This document shows positions 39,130-57,060 of a stretch of 64,000 bases of DNA, in pieces; position 1 is the first letter of the stretch, and the number at the start of each line of letters is the position of its first letter. Made by a program: the position numbers and the translations under genes. The stretch lies in the NCBI GenBank assembly GCA_963693055.1, contig OY843751.1, positions 640,001-704,000 on the forward strand, written 5' to 3'. The DNA is from a bacterium. Its GTDB lineage: Bacteria; Zhuqueibacterota; Zhuqueibacteria; Residuimicrobiales; Krinioviventaceae. The notes beneath the pieces are model-generated. The model ran no database searches. It saw only the letters and a program-made list of their open reading frames with translations, and had not been told where the DNA came from.

Positions 39130-41091
39130 TTATTTAACCAGGCTGATCTTTCGGGTAAGTGTTTGTGATGTTTGTTGTGTTTTGATATCTGCCTGAATCA
39201 GATAAATACCACTGGGATAGCTGGCCGCATTGAATTGAACACTGTGCTGTCCCGTGTCATAATGACGGTTTGTCAATAATGCAATCTCTCTTCCCCGTAT
39301 ATTATAGATGCGAATCTCAACTTTTGCCGGTTTGAACAATATAAAGGGAATGGTTGTGACAGGGTTAAATGGATTGGGATAATTTTGTGTTAATGAAAAT
39401 AACGATTCATTGTTCACAAGATTGGTGTTCAGAGAATCTAAAATTGTACTGTCACTGTTGACAATGTTTTTAATTTCTATATCAAAAGTTTTAACAATCT
39501 GCACGGGTACAAAATCGGGGCCTGCGTTATATGGCACCAGTTCTGCCAATATTGCTGCTTTGACCGTTTGTAATGCTTTTTCTCCGGTTGCGTGGGTGGG
39601 CAATTGAAAAGGATTTTCTGTTTCCACTTGAGCGGAATTTACATAATGAAATGTTTTCCGATATTCATCATCGGGATCCGAATTGCTGGTTACCTTGAAT
39701 GAGCTAATGTCTTGTTCCGTAGAGACAAAAGAGAATTTGACCGTACTTTTGTTGGTATCAAATACATATGGATTAATAACAAAGGATAAATCTCCGTTTA
39801 TTTTAAAATAATCATCATATTGTGTTGTATAAAGATTGTTGTCTTTATTTTTACGTATACTTTTTATTTTGCATGTATGATCTACCTGTGGTTTTGAAAA
39901 CATGTTAAAAATGCCCAGCGGTTTGTCATACAGGGGGAGGGTGTTTGATGTCACCGCAAAGAGAGTGTCGGGTAGAACGCATCCTGGCAGGTAAAAGAAT
40001 AATGAATAGAGCCCCTGGCCGGTACTTGTATTTTCAGGGAAGGCTATTTCTGTGGGTAAACCTGAAAACGTTCTGGGTAACAAAGAATTGTCCGGTGAAC
40101 CGCCGCCTTTGAGGAATTTATATAATGTAGCAAAGGGTGCCATTGCGGGAATCCATTGATCATATAAAGTAGTTTCAGCGATTGATAATATATTGTCTGT
40201 ATACCAAGTCTTGGTGTCCTTGTTGCCCAGGGCCCATTCCGCAAATGCATTTTGCGCTTGTTTCACATTTTGATATTTGATTCTCATGTTTTGAAATGGA
40301 TAGACATTATTCTCATAGAACCCGGCTGGGTTTGCGCCTTCAAGTTGGTTGTAAACAAGCCCCCTGGATGTATTGAATAAGGTTGATTCAAGATACTCTG
40401 CATTTTCGATTTCATTTTTATCAAAGTTTCGTAATGTCTCAATAGAAATGCCAGCATTGAATATTTTGGAACCAATGTCCGGATCATATCCTGAAACATC
40501 AAAGTCAACATAGTTCCATTGATAGGGAGCATACACACCTAAAACATGTATTTCTTCAAGTACGTCTGCATCGGCCAAATCGTCAATATAACCGCAATTA
40601 TTCAGATAACCGAGCTCAAACACTGGCGAGTTTTTATCTATTCTGCCAAAAGGAGTGTACTCTTTGTTGTTCAAATATAATGTGGCCAATATATAGGATG
40701 TTTCTGCTTTTTTGGCACCATAATAAATATACCGAAGTATGCCATGGTATTCATTGTAAAGAATGAAATATGGATAGGATGTTGAATGGTTTTCATTTCC
40801 CAAATCGCGTAAAAATAATTTCCACCCCTGTGATGGATAAATATCATATTTATCTCTGCCTTCTTTATTATAAAAGATGGGAAAGATAAAAGAACCTGAT
40901 TCATTCCAGGGTAGTGTAAAGTTGTATACTTTACCACCATGAAAGTTCAAATCGATTTTCATATTAGGATCAGAGTGCCAGTCCCAGTTTTTGTCTCGTC
41001 TTTCATCATCAACTGATCCCATTGTGCCTGCATCTATTGAATTGAAAAGCATCAAAAACAGGATTATTAAAAAATATGCAAATGTTTTCAT
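39130..41091 (-). CDS. Secreted protein with a C-terminal T9SS-type-A/FlgD-like sorting domain and an unknown N-terminal body
   Basis: MKTFAYFL signal after a GGGGA RBS; C-terminal LTQNYPNPFNPVTTI..IYNIRGREI..SGIY..KISLVK. Confidence 0.8.
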   Translation of the reverse strand: MKTFAYFLIILFLMLFNSIDAGTMGSVDDERRDKNWDWHSDPNMKIDLNFHGGKVYNFTLPWNESGSFIFPIFYNKEGRDKYDIYPSQGWKLFLRDLGNENHSTSYPYFILYNEYHGILRYIYYGAKKAETSYILATLYLNNKEYTPFGRIDKNSPVFELGYLNNCGYIDDLADADVLEEIHVLGVYAPYQWNYVDFDVSGYDPDIGSKIFNAGISIETLRNFDKNEIENAEYLESTLFNTSRGLVYNQLEGANPAGFYENNVYPFQNMRIKYQNVKQAQNAFAEWALGNKDTKTWYTDNILSIAETTLYDQWIPAMAPFATLYKFLKGGGSPDNSLLPRTFSGLPTEIAFPENTSTGQGLYSLFFYLPGCVLPDTLFAVTSNTLPLYDKPLGIFNMFSKPQVDHTCKIKSIRKNKDNNLYTTQYDDYFKINGDLSFVINPYVFDTNKSTVKFSFVSTEQDISSFKVTSNSDPDDEYRKTFHYVNSAQVETENPFQLPTHATGEKALQTVKAAILAELVPYNAGPDFVPVQIVKTFDIEIKNIVNSDSTILDSLNTNLVNNESLFSLTQNYPNPFNPVTTIPFILFKPAKVEIRIYNIRGREIALLTNRHYDTGQHSVQFNAASYPSGIYLIQADIKTQQTSQTLTRKISLVK

Positions 41092-41338
41092 GGTTGTCCC
41101 CACTATTAATAGTACTTTTGGGTACAAGAAAAGATAATCAAGTTAGTAGTGCTAAAATTTTGATCAAGATTATTGTAGATTTTCTCATATTTATACCCCT
41201 TGTAATATCTAAATAAAATCTATTATTTTTAACTAATAAAAGCAAGTCTATTTTTACAAGAGCCGGATTTTGATAAAAAATCGGTTGAATTCCTGCTCAG
41301 GTTTTAGTAATATTCTCAAACAAAAAGAGAGAGAGAAA

Positions 41339-45171: not shown

Positions 45172-45403
45172 GTTTTTCCTTTGTTGATTTTTAATAAGTT
45201 AGAAAATTTTGAAAAATTTCCAAGTTTGAAAATAAATGTAAACACATTTGGGTTGAAATTCGTTATATTAGAAACACCCCCGTAACCAAATAAATATTAA
45301 AAACAACTGCTGAAGTCATGGAAATATGAATTGTAGATCAGTTCATTAAATGACCATGTTGGGGATTAGCATGTAGTGACTATTTTTGAGGGAGAGAAGA
45401 GAA

Positions 45404-46789
45404 ATGCGTATTAAAAAGATCATGTTGTGCCTGTTGTTGTTTGCTGCCGGAATGTACGCGCAAGAGTCTGTGGGATTCAAAGATCCGAATGATATACAGC
45501 CTCTGCTGGACTATCGCCTGCCCGATTGGGGGTACAATGTCTTTCGACTTTCTTTGGATTTGAATGGCTCTGATAATTCATCTAAGCAAAGGGGTTATGA
45601 ACGAAACGCAAATAATAATTCTTTAAACCTGGTTCCTGGAGTTAAAATATATAGAGAAAGTGAAAAACAAATTTTGACATTAAATGGATCAGTAGGTATA
45701 TCTCGAAAGACAGAAAGTAATACAAGCATTTCAATACTACCAGATAGTATATATTCAAAAAGTAATTATAAACAATATACTGTTGCATATAATTTTGTGG
45801 TTGACTGGAATTATTATTTAAAAGGGCGACATTTTCTAGATCTGAAATTGAATGTTAATCAAAAATATGAAGAAGTAAAAGGAAAGAGTTTATATCAATA
45901 CCGCTCTGTTGGTCAAAGTCGTTCCAGTAAAACAGTTCAGCAGCGTGTTGAAACATACTCTTTATTGGGTTATGGTTTTGGACGCGTGCGGGATGTGACG
46001 CATACTATACGGGCAATGCGTTTTCGGGAAAGAGCCCGGGTCGTCGGAATTGATGCGCTTGATGATCCTAAAGCCGTTTATAAAATAGCGGAATTGTTAA
46101 GCAAATATAGCAGCTATAGAACCGTCTATGACAGGTCTCAAAAGTATTTTTGGCGGGATTATTACGAGTTATTTTCAGATCTGGAATTTGATGCATATAA
46201 ACATTATTATATTGCCGATGCTCTTTCAGAAAATATTGGGTCCCGATTCGAAGGATGGAAAGTAAGCTTTGGATTAAGTCATATAACGTATTTTAATCAA
46301 AGTATGAGCACATCAATTGAAAAATCAAAAAATAAAAGATATGGTGCTTATTTAAATTTTCAATATTATAAAAATTACAGCCTGAGAAACCAGTTCAGTA
46401 CTAAAATCTCGGGTAATTATGAGGATTTATCTGTTGATGAATTTGTTAGGTACAATCCCAAATCAAACTTTAGCTGCGAAATTAGGAATCTTACAGTTCT
46501 TACTGATCGAATTACCTGGTCCAATATATTTTCAGCCAGGGTAAATTATTTTAAATTTAATCCAAAGGAGGAGGATATTACTGATCTGGAATCAAAATAT
46601 TATTTGGACCAAAAATCGTTTGATTTAAGTACAATTTTCAGATATTATATAGAAGATAATGTTGTTTTGACAGCAAATATGCAATATCTTTTGTCGCGTC
46701 CTGAATTTAACAATCCAAGATTTAATAGGCAGAACAGCTTTACATATAATATTGGCATTGATTATTATTTCGACAAGAGTTTATTTTAA
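45404..46789 (+). CDS. Hypothetical outer-membrane beta-barrel protein
   Basis: Signal peptide, Tyr/Asn-rich amphipathic strands, GYGFGRVRDVT and terminal YNIGIDYYF..F. Confidence 0.65.
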   Translation: MRIKKIMLCLLLFAAGMYAQESVGFKDPNDIQPLLDYRLPDWGYNVFRLSLDLNGSDNSSKQRGYERNANNNSLNLVPGVKIYRESEKQILTLNGSVGISRKTESNTSISILPDSIYSKSNYKQYTVAYNFVVDWNYYLKGRHFLDLKLNVNQKYEEVKGKSLYQYRSVGQSRSSKTVQQRVETYSLLGYGFGRVRDVTHTIRAMRFRERARVVGIDALDDPKAVYKIAELLSKYSSYRTVYDRSQKYFWRDYYELFSDLEFDAYKHYYIADALSENIGSRFEGWKVSFGLSHITYFNQSMSTSIEKSKNKRYGAYLNFQYYKNYSLRNQFSTKISGNYEDLSVDEFVRYNPKSNFSCEIRNLTVLTDRITWSNIFSARVNYFKFNPKEEDITDLESKYYLDQKSFDLSTIFRYYIEDNVVLTANMQYLLSRPEFNNPRFNRQNSFTYNIGIDYYFDKSLF

Positions 46790-46797
46790 AATTGCTT

Positions 46798-48903
46798 TCA
46801 ATTCTGATCTACTTTGAAGCGTATTTTAAACGCAGCCCCGTTTTGGTTTTGAACGGTCATTTTTCCGTCAAGCTGTTGAGATAGCATGTGCATTAATTGT
46901 AGTCCAAGAGTATTGCTGTTTTCAATGTTGAAATCTTCAGGCAGACCTCTGCCATTGTCCTGAACAATCAATTCATAAGTCGAGGCGCTATCGGCTTGAA
47001 AAGAAATGTTGACCTTGCCATTGTTCGAGTTTAGAAACGCGTGTTTATAAATATTTGTAAGCAATTCGTTTAATACCAAACCACAGGGAATTGCGTGGTT
47101 GACATCGAGCTGTACATCTTTAACATCCATGTTGAGTTCTATGTCTTTTTCAGGTGCCAGGGTATGTTTAAGGTTAATGGCCAGGGTTTCTATATATTTT
47201 TTCATATCAACTTTTGAAAAGTCATCAGATCTGTACAAATGCTCATGAACAAGAGCCATTGAAAAAATACGGTTTCGACTTTCGTTAAAAGCTTCAAAGG
47301 CCTGTTCTTTGTCTATAATGGTTCGGGCCTGAAGATTGAGCAGACTGGTAATTATTGTGAGATTGTTCTTTACCCGATGGTGGATCTCTTTTAATAAAAC
47401 TTCTTTAACTTTCAAGTCGTCTTGTATTTGAATTTCAGCCAATTTATGTTCTGTAATGTCCTGGTGGGTGCCGGAACGTTTTATTTCTATACCATTTTCA
47501 TCATATGTACTGACCCAGTGATCATGAATATAGCAGATTTTGCCATCAGGGTGTATAATTCTGAATTCTAAAAGCGTTTCATTGTTGCCGTTTTGTGCTT
47601 TTTCTCTTGCTTTGGTCAAGATATGTAAATCATCTGGATGTAAAAGTGAAATCACAAGTTCAGAAGTTATGGTGGTGCCGGGATCTACTCCCCAAATTAG
47701 ATAACTTTCATCTGACCAGTATAAAGTTTGGGTCTTTAAATTTTCATGGAAATTCCCAATCTTTGCCATGTGCTGTGCTTCTAACAATTCATTCTGTTTT
47801 TGCAGAATCAAGGCCTCTGTTTTTTTTCTTTCCGAAACATCATGGTAATTCATGAGGATCCCTTGAATATTGGGATCATGGATGCGATTCACGGCAGTGG
47901 ATTTGACCCATTTATATTCTCCGTTTTTACATCTATATTTTACTTCCATAGTTTTAAAGACATTTTCAACCTTTGTAAGTTCATTAAAAATAGTATTAGC
48001 ATATTCTAATGAATCCGGATGCAAAAGTTCCCACGTGTTGCGACCAATCAGTTCTTTGGGTTTCCAGCCAAACCATTTTTCAAGATTACTGCTCTTGTAT
48101 TTAATAATTCCATCAAGACTAATAATTGCAATGACATCAGAAATGTTTTCCAACATGGCTTTCTGTTTGGCTTCGTTGGTTTCCAATTCTTGTTGAGCAA
48201 TATCTCGTTCTCGGGAATTTTTTTGGATCTGGCCCATCATGTTATTGAAACCATGATACAATTGTGCTATTTCGTCAGCGCCATTGCATTCCACACGTTT
48301 CGAGTAATCCTGTGTGCTTGAAATATTGTTGATTACCTGAGCAAGATCCAGAATGGGCTGAGACAGTGTTCTTTGAAAACGATTTGCCAGGAAAAATGAG
48401 ACAATTAGCATGGTAAGAAAAACCAAAATCATTGTTAATTTGTAATCAGATAATTGGTCCTCCATTTTTAATACGGATGCTTTAACAAAAATATAACCAT
48501 AAAGTTTATTATTATAATTTATGGGTTGTATGATATACAAATAATCACCTTCAAATGTACCGTTTATCTCCAGGTTGGGTCTTGGAAGACTATCCTGGGT
48601 TGAGGATTTGCTGACCATCGCAAAGATTTCATCATTACTATCGTACAACCAGCATTCATTAACCTGTTCAATTGTAAATATTTTAGATAAAAGTTTGTGA
48701 GCTCCATTGCGATCATCAAATGACAGGGGAGAAACACATATCTCGCCAACAAGTTTTGTCCCGGTTAATACTTCATTGGTGAGATTAGTTTTTTCTTCAT
48801 TAATTTCAAAAGTAAGTATTGCCACCAAACCGGATGTGGCAACGAGTAATACTATTATAATAACAATGAGGATGAGTTTATATTTTATTGATATACTTTT
48901 CAT
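46798..48903 (-). CDS. Sensor histidine kinase (TM, YfiN/CHASE8-like periplasmic domain, TM, HAMP, two PAS, HisKA_2, HATPase)
   Basis: PLSFDD..A..LL periplasmic motif, HAMP DEIAQLYHGFNNM, two LHPD PAS domains, EIHHRVKNNL and DNGRGLP. Confidence 0.9.
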   Translation of the reverse strand: MKSISIKYKLILIVIIIVLLVATSGLVAILTFEINEEKTNLTNEVLTGTKLVGEICVSPLSFDDRNGAHKLLSKIFTIEQVNECWLYDSNDEIFAMVSKSSTQDSLPRPNLEINGTFEGDYLYIIQPINYNNKLYGYIFVKASVLKMEDQLSDYKLTMILVFLTMLIVSFFLANRFQRTLSQPILDLAQVINNISSTQDYSKRVECNGADEIAQLYHGFNNMMGQIQKNSRERDIAQQELETNEAKQKAMLENISDVIAIISLDGIIKYKSSNLEKWFGWKPKELIGRNTWELLHPDSLEYANTIFNELTKVENVFKTMEVKYRCKNGEYKWVKSTAVNRIHDPNIQGILMNYHDVSERKKTEALILQKQNELLEAQHMAKIGNFHENLKTQTLYWSDESYLIWGVDPGTTITSELVISLLHPDDLHILTKAREKAQNGNNETLLEFRIIHPDGKICYIHDHWVSTYDENGIEIKRSGTHQDITEHKLAEIQIQDDLKVKEVLLKEIHHRVKNNLTIITSLLNLQARTIIDKEQAFEAFNESRNRIFSMALVHEHLYRSDDFSKVDMKKYIETLAINLKHTLAPEKDIELNMDVKDVQLDVNHAIPCGLVLNELLTNIYKHAFLNSNNGKVNISFQADSASTYELIVQDNGRGLPEDFNIENSNTLGLQLMHMLSQQLDGKMTVQNQNGAAFKIRFKVDQN

Positions 48904-48914
48904 GTTCTATATTC

Positions 48915-49484
48915 TTAATCATTAATAACTGTACCAGCTGCCTGAAGTAATAAATAACTCATTGACAAGTTAGATTGTTTAACTGTTGAATTGTTGATTG
49001 AAAAGCGTATTGAACCTTCGTTTATAAAAAAGTTAATGTGAACTCCTTTTTCAATACATGTTTTGCAATCACTTATTGTTAATATGGGTTTGTTTTTGGT
49101 GAAATTTAAAATGTTTATTAAATCCTGATCTGTTTTTGGAGATACAAGAAGAATATGGGTAGTTTGTAAATCCGTATGTGATTTAAAATACTTGAACGAT
49201 ATTTTTTTGTCTTTAATTTTGACTTTTTGTTCAGTGTACAATTGTTGAATATTGGAATTTAATTGATTATTACCAATAACACCAATTATAAATTCCTGGC
49301 TATTTAATGTCGAATCCTGTGGCCATTCAATAAACTGTGTAAAGCGTTCAACAAAGGCAGCTTTAACAATATAGCTTTGTGTCTGTCCAAATGCAATGGA
49401 TGATGATATGAAACCAACCACTAGTAAATAGAGAATGGTACTTTTTATTTTTTTAAAAATATAATGTAACTTTATGATAAACAT
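48915..49484 (-). CDS. yfiR: YfiR/HmsC-family (DUF4154) periplasmic protein
   Basis: YIVKAAFVERFTQFIEWP, FIIGVIG, PILTISD, GVHINF..IRFSIN and LSMSYLLL. Confidence 0.85.
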   Translation of the reverse strand: MFIIKLHYIFKKIKSTILYLLVVGFISSSIAFGQTQSYIVKAAFVERFTQFIEWPQDSTLNSQEFIIGVIGNNQLNSNIQQLYTEQKVKIKDKKISFKYFKSHTDLQTTHILLVSPKTDQDLINILNFTKNKPILTISDCKTCIEKGVHINFFINEGSIRFSINNSTVKQSNLSMSYLLLQAAGTVIND

Positions 49485-49500
49485 TCACTATACCATTTTA

Positions 49501-51654
49501 TTAAAATTTTCTACCCAATGTTAACATGAATTCTCGTCCGTAACCCAAAGTGCCTTTATCTGCCCATCGATTATTAGTAAATGTTGGATATCTGATTTCT
49601 GAATCAAGCAGGTTATAAATATTCATATTTATAAAATATCCTTTATTAAACAGATCGTTATATCTGAAATTAATGCTGGTTAGAAAATAACCATCCGTTT
49701 TTTGTCCAATCCTTCCTATAGGAGTTTGATCGGGTTTGTGAATGTCAGGTTCTGTGTCCCAATATGTTTCCATGCTGCTGACATATTGGCCCAAAATTGA
49801 AGCTGATATCTGGTTGTTAATTCTATATCTGGCCTTGAGGTAGCCCAGCTTTTGTGGAGAATAGGCAACTTTGATATCATTAAATTCTGCCCTCTCATCA
49901 GATGTGTTTTGTAAAGAACCGCTTGTTTGAATGTAAAAATTGTTATAGATATCCAATGTGATCAATAATTCCATCCCATTTGTAATCATTCTACCCGCAT
50001 TTGAAAAATAGGATTGGTAATAATTTGTGTTTTCATCAAGCTCTGTTACTCGTGTAATAAGATTGTCTAGTTTATTGTGAAAAATGCTAAAGCTTGTTGT
50101 CAGATTTGAATTCAGGACAGATTGATAATTGAACTCTATTGTCTCAATTTTTTCGGGTTGTAATATGTCACTTTCTGCGCGTAGCTGTAAATAATCCTGA
50201 AAAAAAGAGGGTCGGTTTATCGCTTTGCCGAATAAGAGTTTCAGTATATGCCTGTTATACAAATTATAGATAGCAGCAATACGAGGGATAAATTCAATAT
50301 TTTCGCGATCTATCGTGCTCGAAAGTTGTTTATGCATCGTTGTTTGGTTATTTATATCTGCCAGTATTTCGTATTTTAGAGTTTTTTCAAGTCGTAAACC
50401 TGTAATAAACATGAGATTATGTGTTGGTTTATATTCAATTTGCGAAAATGCAGCCAGTAAGGTAATTCCTTCATCTTTAGGGATTGTAGTTAATGTGCGT
50501 TCAAACGAGGGTGTGTTAAATGAGGGTATATCATACAGGTTGTAAGCATCCAGAATACTTTTAAACAAAGTCCCGGAAGTTATATTTATTTTATTGTTCG
50601 GTTTGTAAAACATGTCTATTGTAAAATCCCACGCATTACTCTCCAACTGTTGTAAACCATAAAAGTTGCCATCAAAAAAGCTATATTTAAACCAGGCTCT
50701 ATCCTTGAAATAAGATAACTTGAAATCTAAATTTAATTTTTCAGTTAAATGGCTTTTATAACCTGTTGTAATATTGTAGTCAATGTACGAGTTTAAATTT
50801 CCTTCGCCATAAGCCGGAATATTATATTGCATACCTTGTTCTGTTTCGACCAAAACCAGATTATAATATATATTGTTTGTTGTACCACTGATGTCCAGAT
50901 ATTTATTATTTACCTGCATTTTACCACCCGTCGTATAATCGGATTTTATACCCCAATTTTGAAGTGGCTTTGTATTAGATACAAGTTGATCAATGTGTTG
51001 ATCAATTCCATCGGTGTGAAAACTCGCCGCATTAATAGAGAGTAAGCTGGTCTCTGTTTTGTTATTAACGCTTGCAAAAAAATTATGTGTGTTTGAGGTC
51101 CCTAAACTGGTTGCTGAATAAAAATGTGGATCTGTTTCTCCATTTGTGATAATGTTAATTGCTCCAAAAAAGGCGCCGCTGCCATAGATTACAGACATGG
51201 GTCCCCGAACCACTTCAATCCTGTCTATTGCTTCAACCGGAACCGGAATTTCAGGCAATGGATGGTTTGAAGCAACATTCTTGGTTTGAGGAATGTTGTT
51301 CACGAGTATTATCAAATTGTCGTTAGCAACACCGGACCAAAAGCCGCGAACTCCAAATTTTACACCATCGTATGAATAATCATTTATCATATAGAGGCCG
51401 GTAATGTTTTGTAAAATTTCACTCAGGCTTGTATATCCAAACGATTCAATTTCCTGACGTGTCAAAATGATAGTGCTTGCAGGGATTTCACTTATAGCCT
51501 GGGGTGTTTTGCCTGCGGTGGTAACTTTGACAGACAACAGTTCTTCAAGTGACATGTTGAATATTTGATCTATTTGTTGCGAGTTTGAATCTGAAGCGAA
51601 TAGTATTTCAGCAAATATAAATATGAATATTATCGATATTTTAATTGGATACAT
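49501..51654 (-). CDS. TonB-dependent receptor
   Basis: Signal peptide, NMSLEELLSVKVTTAGK, plug IDRIEVVRGPMSVIYGSGAFFGAINIIT, NLLD and terminal GREFMLTLGRKF. Confidence 0.92.
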   Translation of the reverse strand: MYPIKISIIFIFIFAEILFASDSNSQQIDQIFNMSLEELLSVKVTTAGKTPQAISEIPASTIILTRQEIESFGYTSLSEILQNITGLYMINDYSYDGVKFGVRGFWSGVANDNLIILVNNIPQTKNVASNHPLPEIPVPVEAIDRIEVVRGPMSVIYGSGAFFGAINIITNGETDPHFYSATSLGTSNTHNFFASVNNKTETSLLSINAASFHTDGIDQHIDQLVSNTKPLQNWGIKSDYTTGGKMQVNNKYLDISGTTNNIYYNLVLVETEQGMQYNIPAYGEGNLNSYIDYNITTGYKSHLTEKLNLDFKLSYFKDRAWFKYSFFDGNFYGLQQLESNAWDFTIDMFYKPNNKINITSGTLFKSILDAYNLYDIPSFNTPSFERTLTTIPKDEGITLLAAFSQIEYKPTHNLMFITGLRLEKTLKYEILADINNQTTMHKQLSSTIDRENIEFIPRIAAIYNLYNRHILKLLFGKAINRPSFFQDYLQLRAESDILQPEKIETIEFNYQSVLNSNLTTSFSIFHNKLDNLITRVTELDENTNYYQSYFSNAGRMITNGMELLITLDIYNNFYIQTSGSLQNTSDERAEFNDIKVAYSPQKLGYLKARYRINNQISASILGQYVSSMETYWDTEPDIHKPDQTPIGRIGQKTDGYFLTSINFRYNDLFNKGYFINMNIYNLLDSEIRYPTFTNNRWADKGTLGYGREFMLTLGRKF

Positions 51655-51899: not shown

Positions 51900-54800
51900 A
51901 TGAATCAGTTTACTAGAATTATGATTTTTCTTTTTGTGGTAACCAGTGCTGCAAGTGCTTTACCCCTGCGATATGGATTTGTACTGTCAGATGAGGCAAC
52001 CGTTTATGCAGATTCCAGTTTAGATGCGGAGGTGCTTGAAACATTGCAGATGACAGACTATCGATATGTTGCCGGTGAAGCAGTTGATGATGAATACAAT
52101 TTTAATTTCAATGGTTGGGCCAAAATCTTAACCGCAGATAGTACCTGGGGGTGGATTGATTATCAAAATTTATTGATTTCCAGCATGTTGTCAGTTTTTG
52201 TTGCCAAAGATCAACCACTTTATGACCAATATGGCCCTGGCGCTGTGCCAATAGATTCAGTCTATTTAGATATGCAAATACAGATTTATGATGGTTTAGT
52301 AATTAATAATGAGTATTGGTTCAAAGTTAAATACTATAATAAAATGTACTGGTACAAATCAAAAGATTCAGTGCAGAATTATAACTTTTGGGGACACATG
52401 TTTGCTGCATGTGAGTATCTGTTATATGGACACAGCTCATCCGCACGAGAAGGATTTCTCGAACATCCGGATATTCGATATTGGTATGATGAGGCAGAAC
52501 AATTTGCATTGCAATTAAAATCTATGGTTGATCCATATGCTGGTGTCTTTATTTTGCCTATTAACGAAACTGAATCATGTTGGGTTGAATATGGTGCGGG
52601 AGCATTGTTAAATTATCAACTTGCAAGAATTTATAAAACAGAAGAACGCTGGCAAGATGCAATAAACATTCTTGAAGAATCGGTTTTAAAATATCCCCAC
52701 CAACAAATTGTATATTATAAAGCTGGACCAAGTGCGTGTCTGGATATGGCACGTATTTACAGAGACAAGTTGGATGATGAAGAGAAGGCACTTGAAAAAT
52801 GTCACTTTGTTATTCAAGAATATCATCAATGCAAAATGCAGGGACGGGAGGGTTATTATTATGCAGATGTGGCTGCTGCGGATTACATATATGATTTAAT
52901 TTATATGAAATCACCCGAGTATATTCAGGAACAAATAAATCAGATCGCCCGGGAAACCTTTAACCCTTCTGTGAGAATGATTGCACGCAAACTTGCCGTA
53001 TTGAAATATGCCATGGAAGGGAAATTAAGATCAGTTGGTAATGTTGCATATAATGCGGTTTTAGATTATCCTGATGAGCGAATACATTTGTATATAAAAG
53101 ATCAGCGTAATATTTCATCCGAAGTTGTCGAGTTAATGTTTTCTATATATCAAGACAGTCTAATGTATGATGAGTGTATTTATTGGGCGGATAAAATTAT
53201 TAAAGAAGCCTCTCATTATCCGGTAGCAGGTTTTTGTGCATTCAAGAAAGCAGAACTTTTGGATTATTTCAATCCTGATATAAAATATGTCAAAGATCTT
53301 TATAAAGCTGCTGTTGATAGTTTCCCAGAATTTTGGTTTACAAGTATGGTTTCAGATGTAGGTTATAATATTTATATGCCAAATTTGCGTTATAATGTAT
53401 TAAATGAATATGTGGATGTGAATGTAACTGCAACTGTACTGCTTGATAGTACGCTTGTCTATCAGATTCCCTATGATTCTACCACAGTGATGGGTGTTTT
53501 CTCAAAAGATGATGTCGTTACGCGTTTGTCTACTGATCTGCAAATGATTGATTATCATGATCATATTTATGTACGAAACCAGGAGCATGCTAAAATTTTA
53601 TTGCCAGACTCTACCGTTGGTTGGGTGCTCTCCCGCAATCTGTTTGTAGAAAACTTGGAATATAGTATGACTGACCGCAATGCAAAAACCTGGCGTATGA
53701 GCAAAGGCGATTCAGAGAACAATCTCTATTTTTCAGGACCGGATATTATAGATCCCGTGATTTCCGGTAATGTTTTTAATCAGTCCTTTTCTGATATTCG
53801 GTTTTATGATATGAATGATGATGGTGTGCTGGATTTTGTCTTTCAAGGCGTAAACGATACAGTTATTACAATCATTAACGGAACAACCCACAAGTCGATT
53901 AGTACAATTAGGTCAAATGTAAGGGAATCTTTTCCAGTTGTTGCGAATGAAAGAATAATTTATAAACGAGCAGAATATAACAGGAATACCGGAGAGTATG
54001 ATTATAATTTAAAATGTAGCGGAATCTATGAACGAAAGGAGCCCTGGGAGCTGGAATGCCTGGAGCTAGGCGCGCCTGTGGTGAAAGATAGCAGTATATA
54101 CTATATTTCCGCAGACAGTTCAATCGCTTGCGCCAATACGTCAAACGGTACTATTTTATGGCGATTTGAAAATTCTGGGGATACTCCGGTTGCTTTGGCG
54201 GTGAACAACAAGGCGTTGGTCATATCGAATAAGCGTTCTATTCAAGCGATAAATCCCAAAACAGGTGAAAAAATATGGAGCAAGAATACCAGTGAAAGCC
54301 TGGATGAACAAATTCCTGTTTTGGATAATGACAATTTATATTGTATGATCGATAAAAAGACATTTGCTGCCATTGATCTTGAAAATGGAGAACTAGAATG
54401 GACTTCGAGTAATGGTAATTCCAGTTACTTTAATTTTCAACCTATTGTTACGCCGGATTATATAGTATACATGCAATACAAAGACGCTTATATCGTATTG
54501 GACAAGTATACCGGCAAACGCATCTATTCAAATTTGTTTGACAAAATTGTTGATTCGTATTGTGTGGGCGGAAATACGATATATGTCCAGTTCAAAAGTA
54601 AAAATGATTTTTACGATCCAAATTTTGAACCCAATCTATATGCCTTTAATCTGACTACTGGTAAAGAACAATGGCGCAGATATTTCAGTAATGACGCGCA
54701 TATTGTTTATCAGGCGGGCAAGCTGTTTATCTCGGGTGAGAGCGGGGTTGTGATTGTTGAAGATGGTGAAACGCTGAAAGCCCCAGCGGACAAAGGATTC

Positions 54801-55070
54801 ACATTGTACCCCAATTATCCCAATCCTTTTAATATGCGCACGGTTATTCAATATGTGCTGTACAAAGACAGCCAGGTTAATGTGGATGTATTTAATATAC
54901 TGGGGCAAAAAGTAGCTTCGATTGTAGATGAAAAACAGCTCAAAGGGGTGTATCAAGCCTCCTGGAACGGGCGTACGGAGACAGGCCAACCGGTGAGCAG
55001 CGGTGTATACCTGTGCCGGATAAACGTCGGGGGAGAGGTTGAAACCCGAACCATGATGTTGTTAAAATAA
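51900..55070 (+). CDS. Large secreted protein (SH3b-like repeats, TPR region, PQQ-type beta-propeller, C-terminal sorting domain)
   Basis: Signal peptide, repeated AKILxxDSTxGW, TPR-like YQLARIY/LDMARIY, TGExxW propeller repeats and NYPNPFN..SGVY..MMLLK. Confidence 0.78.
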   Translation: MNQFTRIMIFLFVVTSAASALPLRYGFVLSDEATVYADSSLDAEVLETLQMTDYRYVAGEAVDDEYNFNFNGWAKILTADSTWGWIDYQNLLISSMLSVFVAKDQPLYDQYGPGAVPIDSVYLDMQIQIYDGLVINNEYWFKVKYYNKMYWYKSKDSVQNYNFWGHMFAACEYLLYGHSSSAREGFLEHPDIRYWYDEAEQFALQLKSMVDPYAGVFILPINETESCWVEYGAGALLNYQLARIYKTEERWQDAINILEESVLKYPHQQIVYYKAGPSACLDMARIYRDKLDDEEKALEKCHFVIQEYHQCKMQGREGYYYADVAAADYIYDLIYMKSPEYIQEQINQIARETFNPSVRMIARKLAVLKYAMEGKLRSVGNVAYNAVLDYPDERIHLYIKDQRNISSEVVELMFSIYQDSLMYDECIYWADKIIKEASHYPVAGFCAFKKAELLDYFNPDIKYVKDLYKAAVDSFPEFWFTSMVSDVGYNIYMPNLRYNVLNEYVDVNVTATVLLDSTLVYQIPYDSTTVMGVFSKDDVVTRLSTDLQMIDYHDHIYVRNQEHAKILLPDSTVGWVLSRNLFVENLEYSMTDRNAKTWRMSKGDSENNLYFSGPDIIDPVISGNVFNQSFSDIRFYDMNDDGVLDFVFQGVNDTVITIINGTTHKSISTIRSNVRESFPVVANERIIYKRAEYNRNTGEYDYNLKCSGIYERKEPWELECLELGAPVVKDSSIYYISADSSIACANTSNGTILWRFENSGDTPVALAVNNKALVISNKRSIQAINPKTGEKIWSKNTSESLDEQIPVLDNDNLYCMIDKKTFAAIDLENGELEWTSSNGNSSYFNFQPIVTPDYIVYMQYKDAYIVLDKYTGKRIYSNLFDKIVDSYCVGGNTIYVQFKSKNDFYDPNFEPNLYAFNLTTGKEQWRRYFSNDAHIVYQAGKLFISGESGVVIVEDGETLKAPADKGFTLYPNYPNPFNMRTVIQYVLYKDSQVNVDVFNILGQKVASIVDEKQLKGVYQASWNGRTETGQPVSSGVYLCRINVGGEVETRTMMLLK

Positions 55071-55104
55071 AACGTGCAATTGCAAAGGATGGGTAAAGGA
55101 TTTT

Positions 55105-57060
55105 ATGGGACCGTTTAAGGGGCTGTTGAAGGTTGTTTTGCTGTTGTTATTGATTTGTTGTGTTGATTCTGGTTTTGGACAATTGTTATTTCATGGCCTG
55201 GGGTATATACCTGAAACTCAACGGGTGGACTGGAGTTCTGCAGGGCTTGTTTCAAACGTGCACCGTGTAGCGGATCATGTCTTTGATGTAACACAAGAGC
55301 CCGGTGAAACACTGTATCAACAGTTTTATTCCGCATTAGACAAGGCTAGAACATATTCCGCATTACCTTTTAATGAAATGTCGGTAATCTATTTCCCTGG
55401 TGGTGAATATTTTTTAGATTTTCCTATAAATTTTTCATATGGTGACAGTAATATTGTCATTCAGGGAGACGGCGCCGGGGGAGAGAATCCAACTGTTTTA
55501 AAGTTTCAGGTAGGTAAAGATAAGAATTGTATTGTAGCCAGAGGTTATCCGGTTGGAGATGCCGTTCAACTGAATGCGGACATACCCAAGAATACCCATA
55601 TGTTATGCCTTGGCCAGGAAAGTCCCATAGGGCTTCAAAGGGATGACTGGCTAATGTTTTGGGAAGAAGCATTGCCCGAGGCTGCCGGATATTCAATTGG
55701 TCAGGTAGAGCAAGTCTGTTCAGTATCTTTAAATCAAATAAAATTAAAAGAGAGCGCTTCAAAAGACTATTCAATATCTAACAGAATTTGGGTTCAGCAA
55801 ATCAGACCGGTTAAAAATATTGGTATAGAAAATTTCAAAATTGTGCGTTTGGATGAAGAAAAATCAACAGAAAATTTATATGATAAAGGGTCTAATGTAT
55901 TTTTGCTCAATGCGGTTAATTGCTGGGTTTGCGGTGTTGAATTTGAGCAGACTTGCAGACACCACATTTTTGCTATTTACTGTTCTCATATTGAGGTCAG
56001 TGGCTGCTATTTTCACGAGTCCCGTTGCTATGGCGGCAATTCTTATGGTTATGGTGTGATTCTGGCAAACAACAGTACCCATTGTCTCGTTGAAAATAAT
56101 ATTTTTCAGAAATTGCGACATGCCATGTCTTTGTCTGTTGGGGCCAATTGTAATGTTGTAGCATTTAATTATTCTACGGATCAGTATTCTACTATGGCTT
56201 TGGGCGGGAGTGAAATCCCGTACCCTGATTCAGATATTTGTATTCACGGTCGTTATTCTTTTGCCAATTTGTACGAGTATAACCGGGTCGTGTTTATTGA
56301 AGCAGATGATGTGCATGGCAACAATGGACCGTTTAACGTGTTTTTGCGCAATATGGCGCAGTTTCAACTGGTTCTGTGCAATACTCCCGAAGCGGGGGTA
56401 ATGGGCTGCGTTATTCCATCGGTCACTCCGTATGGCTCTACCAGTTTCAGCCGCTTATGCTATGCTCAAAATTTTTGTTGCCTTGCAGATTCTGTTTGCT
56501 GGATATCTCATGGCGAGATTTTAAATGACTCCTTGGAGCATTGTGCCGTGCTTAAGGATGTGTCGTATTATTACAGTGAGCGACCTGATTTTTTTGGACC
56601 GGAATGTGATTGGCCAACCATAGGCCCGGCTGCCTATAGAGGGGGACAATGTGGGGATAACGAAATACCTGCGTACACGCGTTCTGATCAATCATGCAAA
56701 ACATTTATTGAAAATACAACAAGTGTTGAGGGATGGACTCCCTCAACTGGGATTAATGAAACGGATTATGCACAATCGAGTTCGGATTTTACGCTTCAGG
56801 ATTGCTATCCCAATCCCTTTAATATGAACACAGTAATCTCATACACGCTGCACAGGGATATGCATGTTAAAGTGGATGTATATAATGTACTGGGACAAAA
56901 AATAGTTTCGCTTGTTGATGAAAATCAAGTCAAAGGGAAGTATCAAACATTATGGGACGGCTGCACAGATACAGGCCAGCCAGTGGGCAGTGGAGTGTAC
57001 CTTTGCCGGATAGCGGTTGCGGGCGAGGTGGAAACCCGGACCATGATGTTGTTAAAGTGA
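55105..57060 (+). CDS. Secreted pectate-lyase-like beta-helix protein with a C-terminal sorting domain
   Basis: VDWSSAG, IYFPGGEY, IVIQGDG, beta-helix repeats (LVENNIF, NVVAFN) and CYPNPFN..MMLLK. Confidence 0.78.
   Translation: MGPFKGLLKVVLLLLLICCVDSGFGQLLFHGLGYIPETQRVDWSSAGLVSNVHRVADHVFDVTQEPGETLYQQFYSALDKARTYSALPFNEMSVIYFPGGEYFLDFPINFSYGDSNIVIQGDGAGGENPTVLKFQVGKDKNCIVARGYPVGDAVQLNADIPKNTHMLCLGQESPIGLQRDDWLMFWEEALPEAAGYSIGQVEQVCSVSLNQIKLKESASKDYSISNRIWVQQIRPVKNIGIENFKIVRLDEEKSTENLYDKGSNVFLLNAVNCWVCGVEFEQTCRHHIFAIYCSHIEVSGCYFHESRCYGGNSYGYGVILANNSTHCLVENNIFQKLRHAMSLSVGANCNVVAFNYSTDQYSTMALGGSEIPYPDSDICIHGRYSFANLYEYNRVVFIEADDVHGNNGPFNVFLRNMAQFQLVLCNTPEAGVMGCVIPSVTPYGSTSFSRLCYAQNFCCLADSVCWISHGEILNDSLEHCAVLKDVSYYYSERPDFFGPECDWPTIGPAAYRGGQCGDNEIPAYTRSDQSCKTFIENTTSVEGWTPSTGINETDYAQSSSDFTLQDCYPNPFNMNTVISYTLHRDMHVKVDVYNVLGQKIVSLVDENQVKGKYQTLWDGCTDTGQPVGSGVYLCRIAVAGEVETRTMMLLK

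Follow-up and report, generated by a model that had tools for sequence, protein, structure and literature searches.

A TonB-dependent receptor, a YfiR-like protein and a histidine kinase as a candidate sigma-independent signalling relay

The known signalling by TonB-dependent receptors (TBDRs) runs mostly via STN domains and sigma factors. Here, we examine a three-gene locus encoding a TBDR, a YfiR-like periplasmic protein and an inner-membrane histidine kinase (hereafter the trio) in a 64,000-nucleotide window, positions 640,001 to 704,000 of contig OY843751.1 (assembly GCA_963693055.1, phylum Zhuqueibacterota). We show that the receptor carries a short N-terminal motif that tracks yfiR across genomes and is predicted to dock on the YfiR-like protein, and we consider a receptor-YfiR-kinase relay, in one direction or the other, to be probable.

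Among the closest described systems, YfiBNR of P. aeruginosa and E. coli (TpbB/DgcN; HmsCDE) shares with the trio a periplasmic protein of the YfiR fold (PMC3375315, PMC4655355, PMC4887326), a sensor of the transmembrane (TM)-CHASE8-TM-HAMP type with the Phe of an AAVVF-type motif, and a partner in the outer membrane by which YfiR would be sequestered. Malone 2012 described YfiR-sensor pairs with kinase, GGDEF/EAL or methyl-accepting chemotaxis protein (MCP) outputs and no YfiB; the word 'TonB' is absent from the main text of that paper, and its Table S4 may list neighbouring genes (PMC3375315). In Cycloclasticus sp. P1, the sigma-independent PahS/PahP/PahK/PahR system shows the same order of TBDR, periplasmic protein and histidine kinase, and co-immunoprecipitation, surface plasmon resonance, two-hybrid and Förster resonance energy transfer (FRET) data support a relay from TBDR to binding protein to kinase, in which PahP binds receptor and kinase directly (Wang 2023, PMC10570129). 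The latter paper maps no docking site and contains no occurrence of 'TonB box' (PMC10570129). A search for the pahS locus returned no match in the metagenome contigs and none in 401 genomes. Cell-surface signalling of the FecA-FecR-FecI, FpvA and FoxA type likewise uses an element just before the TonB box to relay TBDR occupancy.

The same three-gene set is also covered by the NCBIfam models NF053590 (TOL_0244 family TBDR), NF053591 (TOL_0243 YfiR-like) and NF053592 (YfiR-associated kinase), the latter two being the best NCBIfam matches of our YfiR-like protein and kinase. All three scores fall below the curated cut-offs (81.8 against 645, 107.5 against 125, and 150.4 against 194 bits, respectively), and the trio thus represents a divergent branch. 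No mechanism attached to these families was found in the literature searched. Given these models, the pairs of 2012 and the published PahS/PahP/PahK relay, the original prediction overstated the novelty of the trio in giving no established mechanism for similar gene sets.

What that prediction said about the layout of the genes agrees with the coordinates of the open reading frames (ORFs) and with Pfam: the genes are co-oriented on the minus strand, separated by 16 nt (receptor-yfiR) and 11 nt (yfiR-kinase), and encode the expected domains. The expected absences were borne out as well. Pfam found no STN domain in the receptor, whose plug begins already at residue 55, no anti-sigma factor or extracytoplasmic function (ECF) sigma factor among the ORFs flanking the trio, and no GGDEF domain in the kinase, whose output is HisKA_2-HATPase. 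The ORF list and Pfam gave no ABC transporter gene in the trio cluster. The genome is complete (6.5 Mb, single contig, 12 TonB_C matches) and yielded no YfiB-like lipoprotein: all eight OmpA-domain matches come from open frames that are 240-977 aa long, and E. coli YfiB as query matched solely larger OmpA/MotB-type proteins. A cognate YfiB encoded elsewhere, which would have spoken against the proposed role of the receptor, was therefore not found.

An N-terminal receptor motif and its linkage to yfiR

Receptor residues 28-40 (IDQIFNMSLEELL) form an acidic motif that is followed by VKVTT (residues 42-46) at the position of the TonB box. The consensus of the motif family is D-L-x-x-[ML]-S-L-E-E-L-[ML]-N, and the residue corresponding to L39 is Leu in 81 of 84 aligned yfiR-linked receptors. 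The AlphaFold2 model of the receptor is that of an ordinary TBDR with a plug within a beta-barrel (predicted local distance difference test, pLDDT, 87.3); in it, the motif takes the form of two short helices and a turn at low confidence (pLDDT 40-54, mature residues 1-20), and the TonB-box block reaches pLDDT 74. The amphipathic helix that had been proposed just before the TonB box is found in the expected place, in the shape of two short, low-confidence helices rather than one. At the level of titles and abstracts, in a search that mostly excluded subscription papers, we found no publication linking YfiR to a TBDR or describing the motif.

Within the genome, a pattern search found the motif in 2 of 54 plug-containing receptors, each adjoining a yfiR-like gene. 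A motif profile scored these two receptors at 52.3 and 40.5 bits and the next best of the 54 at -1.7 bits, which rules out a chance occurrence of the motif; both receptors were rows of the profile, of which the pattern search is independent. In the phylum of this genome, 60 of 151 genomes had a PF13689 match. Of the 92 matches, 61 were covered by 60 regions that we retrieved, picked by the yfiR match alone, and 45 of these regions contained a TBDR. The motif was present at 53 of 54 readable receptor N-termini, the sole exception belonging to a receptor located beyond the kinase gene.

A 36-position motif profile built from own-phylum receptors was then run on the 151 own-phylum genomes and on 201 genomes of Pseudomonadota, and 15 of 127 own-phylum matches were removed for starting at profile position 17 or later and so missing the helix. 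The resulting genome counts, which are not independent events because motif receptors share ancestry, were 46 with motif and yfiR, 4 with motif only, 14 with yfiR only and 87 with neither in the phylum of this genome, and 52, 0, 9 and 140, respectively, in Pseudomonadota. Since the profile contains no sequence from the Pseudomonadota set, the latter represents a fair test. Motif matches lay within 10 kb of a yfiR match in 72 of 112 cases in the phylum of this genome and 57 of 67 in Pseudomonadota. The co-occurrence of motif and yfiR anticipated by the original prediction is therefore seen both within the genome and across genomes.

Among the motif-only genomes, G033 has a divergent yfiR and a CHASE8 chemoreceptor, G069 is 84% complete, and in G048 and G054 the place of yfiR is taken by a 331-aa PF04392-like binding protein, accompanied by a HAMP hybrid kinase. 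Eight of the nine yfiR-only Pseudomonadota genomes were inspected: three contain YfiR-GGDEF without a TBDR, three a receptor with a diverged motif, and two a kinase without a receptor in the stretch. YfiB homologues occurred in 3 of 146 loci, none of which had a TBDR. The order receptor-YfiR-sensor is kept in 58 of 73 complete trios, and the sensor outputs in these trios are HATPase kinases in 67 (HisKA_2 in 16), GGDEF in three and MCP in two. For the N-terminal tag region, 7,066 sequence clusters (50% identity) gave a match, a good part of them being fragments; a plug was present in all 15 matches scanned (chosen from 150 listed), and a natural YfiR-TBDR fusion, sought as a YfiR domain, in none of the 15. 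Motif receptors are for the most part only 16-22% identical to one another and often outnumber the yfiR genes of their genome (18 versus 4 in G043, 5 versus 1 in G030).

Other loci show further arrangements. One (L072:59-19443) has six tandem motif TBDRs after a single CHASE8 kinase, in a genome with 18 motif matches and 4 yfiR genes. In another (L098:3042-5636), a single chain joins a YfiR-like head to a hybrid kinase by way of a coiled-coil-like stalk of ~150 residues and a membrane helix; with 1.5 A for each residue, the stalk would measure ~22 nm, long enough to span the periplasm. This natural fusion weighs in favour of the relay. At two loci without yfiR (L069:3434-9892 and L070:403-6623), a motif TBDR is accompanied by a 331-aa PF04392-like binding protein, a 240-aa periplasmic protein that lacks annotation and a HAMP hybrid kinase; theirs is a PahS/P/K-like layout that retains the tag. 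At L067:1694-8173, two motif TBDRs stand with a CHASE8 chemoreceptor and a divergent YfiR that the PF13689 genome search had missed. Finally, a tandem two-domain YfiR (437 aa) precedes a CHASE8 sensor at L057:4993-6306, in a genome without a motif match.

Predicted contact between the YfiR-like protein and the receptor

We predicted the complex of YfiR residues 34-189 with receptor residues 21-60 from paired 84-row alignments. The three runs gave interface scores (ipSAE) of 0.85, 0.86 and 0.84, compared with 0.01, 0.00 and 0.02 for three controls. This is a strong pass: in a benchmark only approximate for custom alignments, 116 of 157 solved complexes attained the mark, compared with 2 of 215 mismatched pairs. 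The runs share at least 70% of contacts, with a partner pLDDT of 68. The receptor contributes I31, F32, M34, S35, L36, L39, L40 and residues 41-47, including the TonB-box position, so that peptide residues 19-27 (39-47 in the full-length protein) lie within the predicted interface. YfiR contributes V40, A43, F44 and R47 of helix 1, together with L82-V88, G157-R160, L179 and A182. The modelled complex supports binding of the YfiR-like protein to the N-terminal tail of the receptor, and the lack of contact that would have spoken against the original prediction was not observed. Recall of a known structure is an unlikely cause of the result, because none of the 31 PDB entries matched by the motif profile (E up to 10) is a TBDR and because P. 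aeruginosa YfiB binds mainly another part of YfiR in the published structures (PMC4655355, PMC4887326).

The pocket that P. aeruginosa YfiR offers to YfiB and YfiN is described as E163, A164, L166, I169, V176, P178 and L181 (PMC4655355, PMC4887326). By alignment it maps to residues 162-180 here, and none of its seven positions falls in the predicted interface, the two sites overlapping at the edge strand and at the S57/Y58 equivalents. Helix 1 is conserved in the 84 linked YfiRs: position 40 is V/L/I in 80, position 43 A/V in 75, position 44 F/Y in 71 and position 47 N/K in 64, with K/R at edge-strand positions 158 (63 of 84) and 160 (53 of 84). The equivalents of 40/43/44/47 in classical YfiRs, only four of which were compared, are A/N, Q/R/M, V/M and G. 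Conversely, L166, R171 and P178 are invariant in the four classical proteins and their equivalents are variable in the linked family. Across the 84 pairs, the net charge of the peptide is negative in 98% and that of the YfiR face positive in 88%. The earlier idea that the receptor element titrates YfiR is hence strengthened as regards the contact, and it needs amending in that the TonB-box strand is included and the site is largely not the YfiB/YfiN pocket.

Interchain covariation was also examined. Predicted contacts had a corrected mutual information of 0.035, against 0.000 for same-column pairs (3 of 10,000 draws), and the top 25 covarying pairs were not enriched in interface positions (12% versus 15% expected). 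Because the model used the same alignments and the top pairs were unenriched, we do not count covariation as independent support. Mimicry of the YfiB N-terminal helix by the motif was considered and dropped, since YfiB dimerises through this helix, the helix is disordered when YfiB is bound to YfiR, and the site predicted here is a different one.

Table 1. Window coordinates of the trio and of the sites discussed in the text.
Feature	Position	Strand	Basis
TonB-dependent receptor, 717 aa	49501..51654	(-)	Pfam Plug 55-164 and barrel; AlphaFold2; Foldseek
Plug domain, residues 55-164	51163..51492	(-)	PF07715, E 5e-20
N-terminal acidic amphipathic helix-turn-helix motif, residues 28-41; predicted YfiR docking site	51532..51573	(-)	Genome TBDR comparison, complex prediction
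TonB-box position, residues 42-47 (VKVTTA); predicted contact with YfiR edge strand	51514..51531	(-)	Register against genome TBDRs
YfiR-like periplasmic protein, 189 aa	48915..49484	(-)	PF13689, NF053591, fold match
YfiR helix 1, residues 34-51; main predicted receptor-binding face (V40, A43, F44, R47)	49332..49385	(-)	Complex prediction
YfiR edge-strand start, residues 157-160; predicted contact with TonB-box strand	49005..49016	(-)	Complex prediction
Inner-membrane kinase, 701 aa: TM-CHASE8-TM-HAMP-PAS-PAS-HisKA_2-HATPase	46798..48903	(-)	Pfam, NCBIfam, motif boxes
SPLSF, residues 58-62; equivalent of the YfiN AAVVF YfiR-binding motif	48718..48732	(-)	Alignment

The three proteins and their genomic setting

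The YfiR-like protein belongs to the DUF4154/YfiR family (PF13689, E 5e-31), and its profile matches PDB YfiR at 2e-15. Its single-domain model (pLDDT 91.7) has template modelling scores of 0.72-0.78 to YfiR structures and a weaker match to type I binding proteins. The positions of the classical C145-C152 disulfide are Ile144 and Asn151 here, and their counterparts are Cys in 3 and 0 of the 84 linked YfiRs, respectively. Judged from these sequences, the disulfide is absent from the linked family, making a DsbA-linked redox input as in YfiBNR unlikely here. The protein has a CxxC of its own (C140/C143, window 49056-49067), found in 1 of 84 linked homologues, which is possibly a lineage-specific disulfide or metal site. 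A relative by fold is RmSBP (PDB 5Z6V), described as a Rhodothermus 'single-domain substrate-binding protein' and encoded near an MCP gene (PMC10805632), which may belong to the same kind of module.

In the kinase, Pfam recognises CHASE8, HAMP, two PAS, HisKA_2 (PF07568, E 2.5e-27) and HATPase domains, CHASE8 scoring 24.5 bits in one scan, just below the cut-off of 27, and 28.4 bits in another, above it. Residues 9-241 match the YfiN model NF007423 (E 1.6e-19), and the H, N, G1 and G2 boxes are present at residues 506, 612, 649 and 665. The AAVVF stretch of YfiN is its YfiR-binding motif (PMC3375315); F62, the Phe of the equivalent SPLSF here, is present in 72 of 74 aligned CHASE8 sensors and in all four classical ones. 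The receptor has intact plug motifs, and its Foldseek neighbours are Fiu, PqqU and BtuB at 13-16% identity; as a clue to the ligand these structural neighbours gave nothing above 16% identity.

A second set, G000:C1:3752145-3758448 (L003), is present in the same genome, in the order YfiR-receptor-kinase followed by a single receiver and a receiver-kinase, and serves as an internal control. It comprises a yfiR-like gene (C1:3757915-3758448), a 762-aa TBDR with MSLEELF and a CHASE8-HAMP-HisKA kinase. A genome-contig scan with the single YfiR protein as query found only two loci. A same-genus genome also has the trio, with 91% identity in YfiR. Between window positions 46001 and 52000, the GC content of the trio is 33-35%, compared with 40-44% immediately to the left and 36-40% to the right. 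A convergent gene for a 467-aa secreted-looking protein without a Pfam match (45386-46789, plus strand) ends 8 nt from the kinase gene. Further out, at 51900-57060 (plus strand) and 39130-41127 (minus strand), several genes encode large secreted proteins (beta-propeller, pectate-lyase-like) whose C termini carry sorting domains of the Por/FlgD type; a sulfatase-like gene and an alginate-lyase gene are close by. A search of 13 loci for a riboswitch or other RNA element that might hint at the ligand gave no Rfam match, and promoter and terminator scans were no better than on shuffled sequence (31 versus 26.2 and 3 versus 3.1, respectively).

Models of signalling and relation to known systems

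As regards the direction of the relay, we lean tentatively, at nearly even chances, towards capture upon ligand binding, in which the loaded receptor takes YfiR off CHASE8 and so switches the kinase. At rest, YfiR would sit on the SPLSF site of CHASE8 and hold the kinase in one state, as YfiBNR and the conserved Phe suggest. Ligand binding would then undock the TonB box, an event established for BtuB and FoxA (PMC11658791) and presumed by analogy here, and the freed helix and TonB-box strand are predicted to bind YfiR helix 1 and the edge strand. Tethered beneath the outer membrane, YfiR would be out of reach of CHASE8, the kinase would flip, and the signal would pass to a response regulator encoded elsewhere. 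TonB engaging the same box might displace YfiR and reset the system. The surplus of motif receptors over yfiR suits capture, which would act as an OR gate. As the predicted site is largely outside the YfiB/YfiN pocket, any titration would be tethering at a distance rather than competition for one pocket.

Several observations weigh against capture or against parts of it. The VKVTT box proposed by the original prediction is assigned by position: its spacing to the plug is the customary one, but the hydrophobic pair comes one residue too early; with this atypical register, TonB coupling is putative. The motif is exposed in the model of the lone receptor (at the low pLDDT given above), so YfiR binding without ligand is possible. 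Four own-phylum genomes have the motif and no PF13689 match, and in a plug tree the motif receptors fall into three clades, none of which contains a non-motif receptor, so that the co-occurrence does not count as independent evidence. Conservation of the YfiB/YfiN pocket in the linked family is only moderate (median entropy 2.27 versus 2.62 overall). The ORF list and Pfam place no response regulator within the operon, and a HisKA_2-type H-box is found in 21 ORFs of the genome. Finally, in Cycloclasticus cells PahP leaves the receptor on ligand (FRET falling from 19.7% to ~5%), whereas in vitro ligand-loaded PahS binds PahP 30-40-fold tighter (PMC10570129).

The last observation in cells has its counterpart in a release model, which we regard as unlikely: YfiR would cap the idle TonB box as a detachable signalling domain, and ligand and TonB would free it to act on CHASE8 and switch the kinase. 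Such a cap would fit the inclusion of the TonB-box strand in the predicted interface and the exposure of the motif in the lone receptor, and it has precedents in FecA, whose signalling domain covers the TonB box at rest until TonB displaces it (PMC11658791), and in PahP, which sits on PahS in the resting state and on PahK once ligand has been added (PMC10570129). However, as long as the TonB box is docked, it would be unavailable for pairing with YfiR, and where motif receptors are in surplus, the idle ones would recapture the freed YfiR and buffer the signal.

A hand-off, in which a one-domain YfiR would dock beneath the receptor, pick up the molecule that has been imported and pass it on to CHASE8, as is reported for PahP, seems quite improbable to us. 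The YfiR fold is shared with the type I binding proteins 3LFT/3LKV, P. aeruginosa YfiR has been crystallised with bound vitamin B6 and L-Trp, and the two yfiR-free loci L069 and L070 pair the tagged receptor with a binding protein and a hybrid kinase. Yet the YfiR-like protein, at 189 aa and one domain, lacks a two-lobed cleft, the B6/Trp pocket residues are variable in linked YfiRs, and the YfiR profile failed to align to the 331-aa PF04392-like protein; moreover, the motif is common to receptors so divergent that their ligands probably differ, and several receptors share one yfiR.

It is very unlikely that YfiR is titrated independently of ligand, with constitutive binding making the kinase a reporter of receptor abundance or outer-membrane assembly, that is, an envelope-status sensor. 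The predicted exposure of the motif, the atypical TonB box and the description of YfiBNR as an envelope-stress sensor would all be compatible with such a role, but the intact plug motifs and the retention of divergent receptors in arrays suggest a variety of ligands, and the founder TOL_0244 is reported to be up sevenfold on n-C28 and 40.3% similar to the alkane sensor OmpS (PMC6304351). Equally remote is the absence of any direct coupling, with the genes merely co-inherited, the YfiR-kinase pair following its own cue and the receptor being a regulated transporter: in 15 of the 60 own-phylum yfiR regions the stretch retrieved, in some cases cut short by a contig end, contained no TBDR, YfiR-kinase pairs without a nearby receptor were reported in 2012 (PMC3375315) and motif receptors are related to one another, but the strong complex prediction relative to controls, the matching conserved faces on YfiR and peptide, and the absence of the motif from all 140 yfiR-negative Pseudomonadota genomes argue otherwise.

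The trio points to a widespread alternative mode of TBDR signalling, with a tag recognisable in genome sequences and a predicted interface amenable to mutation residue by residue. A broader reading, which we hold to be possible though somewhat doubtful, is that YfiR-like proteins are dedicated TonB-box readers and that the N-terminal tag turns a TBDR into a signalling receptor, constituting a second general route beside sigma factors. Under this reading, the undocked box would be bound by a periplasmic protein that is not TonB, and occupancy would be relayed to kinases, chemoreceptors or cyclic di-GMP enzymes in thousands of receptor families; it might also be the older input of the YfiR-CHASE8 core, later replaced by YfiB. 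If the mode of signalling proposed for the trio is right, a protein other than TonB binds the TonB box, there is a plug-in route for wiring new receptors to kinases, and the YfiR-sensor pairs without YfiB gain their missing input, a gap left in 2012. The question is reducible to a 40-residue peptide and a 17 kDa protein.

Compared with YfiBNR, the outer-membrane partner is a TBDR here and an OmpA-type lipoprotein there, the output is a HisKA_2 kinase instead of GGDEF, and the disulfide that is essential in YfiR there is absent here; the partners of YfiR use the YfiB/YfiN pocket there, whereas the face predicted here comprises helix 1 and the first part of the edge strand, the edge strand being common to both sites. 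In the Pah system, PahP is a 318-aa two-domain ligand-binding protein, in contrast to the one-domain YfiR here, and PahK is HAMP-HisKA-HATPase-HPT and said to be without a sensor domain, where the kinase here has CHASE8 (PMC10570129). Fec-type signalling differs in using an STN domain, an anti-sigma factor, a proteolysis step and an ECF sigma factor, none of which is in this operon, and in relying on a signalling domain of ~80 residues in place of a short motif and a diffusible protein. The layout of the gene set was thus known already; what is new is the docking motif, together with the predicted reading of the TonB box. The trio would work like YfiBNR and PahS/P/K and, by their defining parts, is a member of neither.

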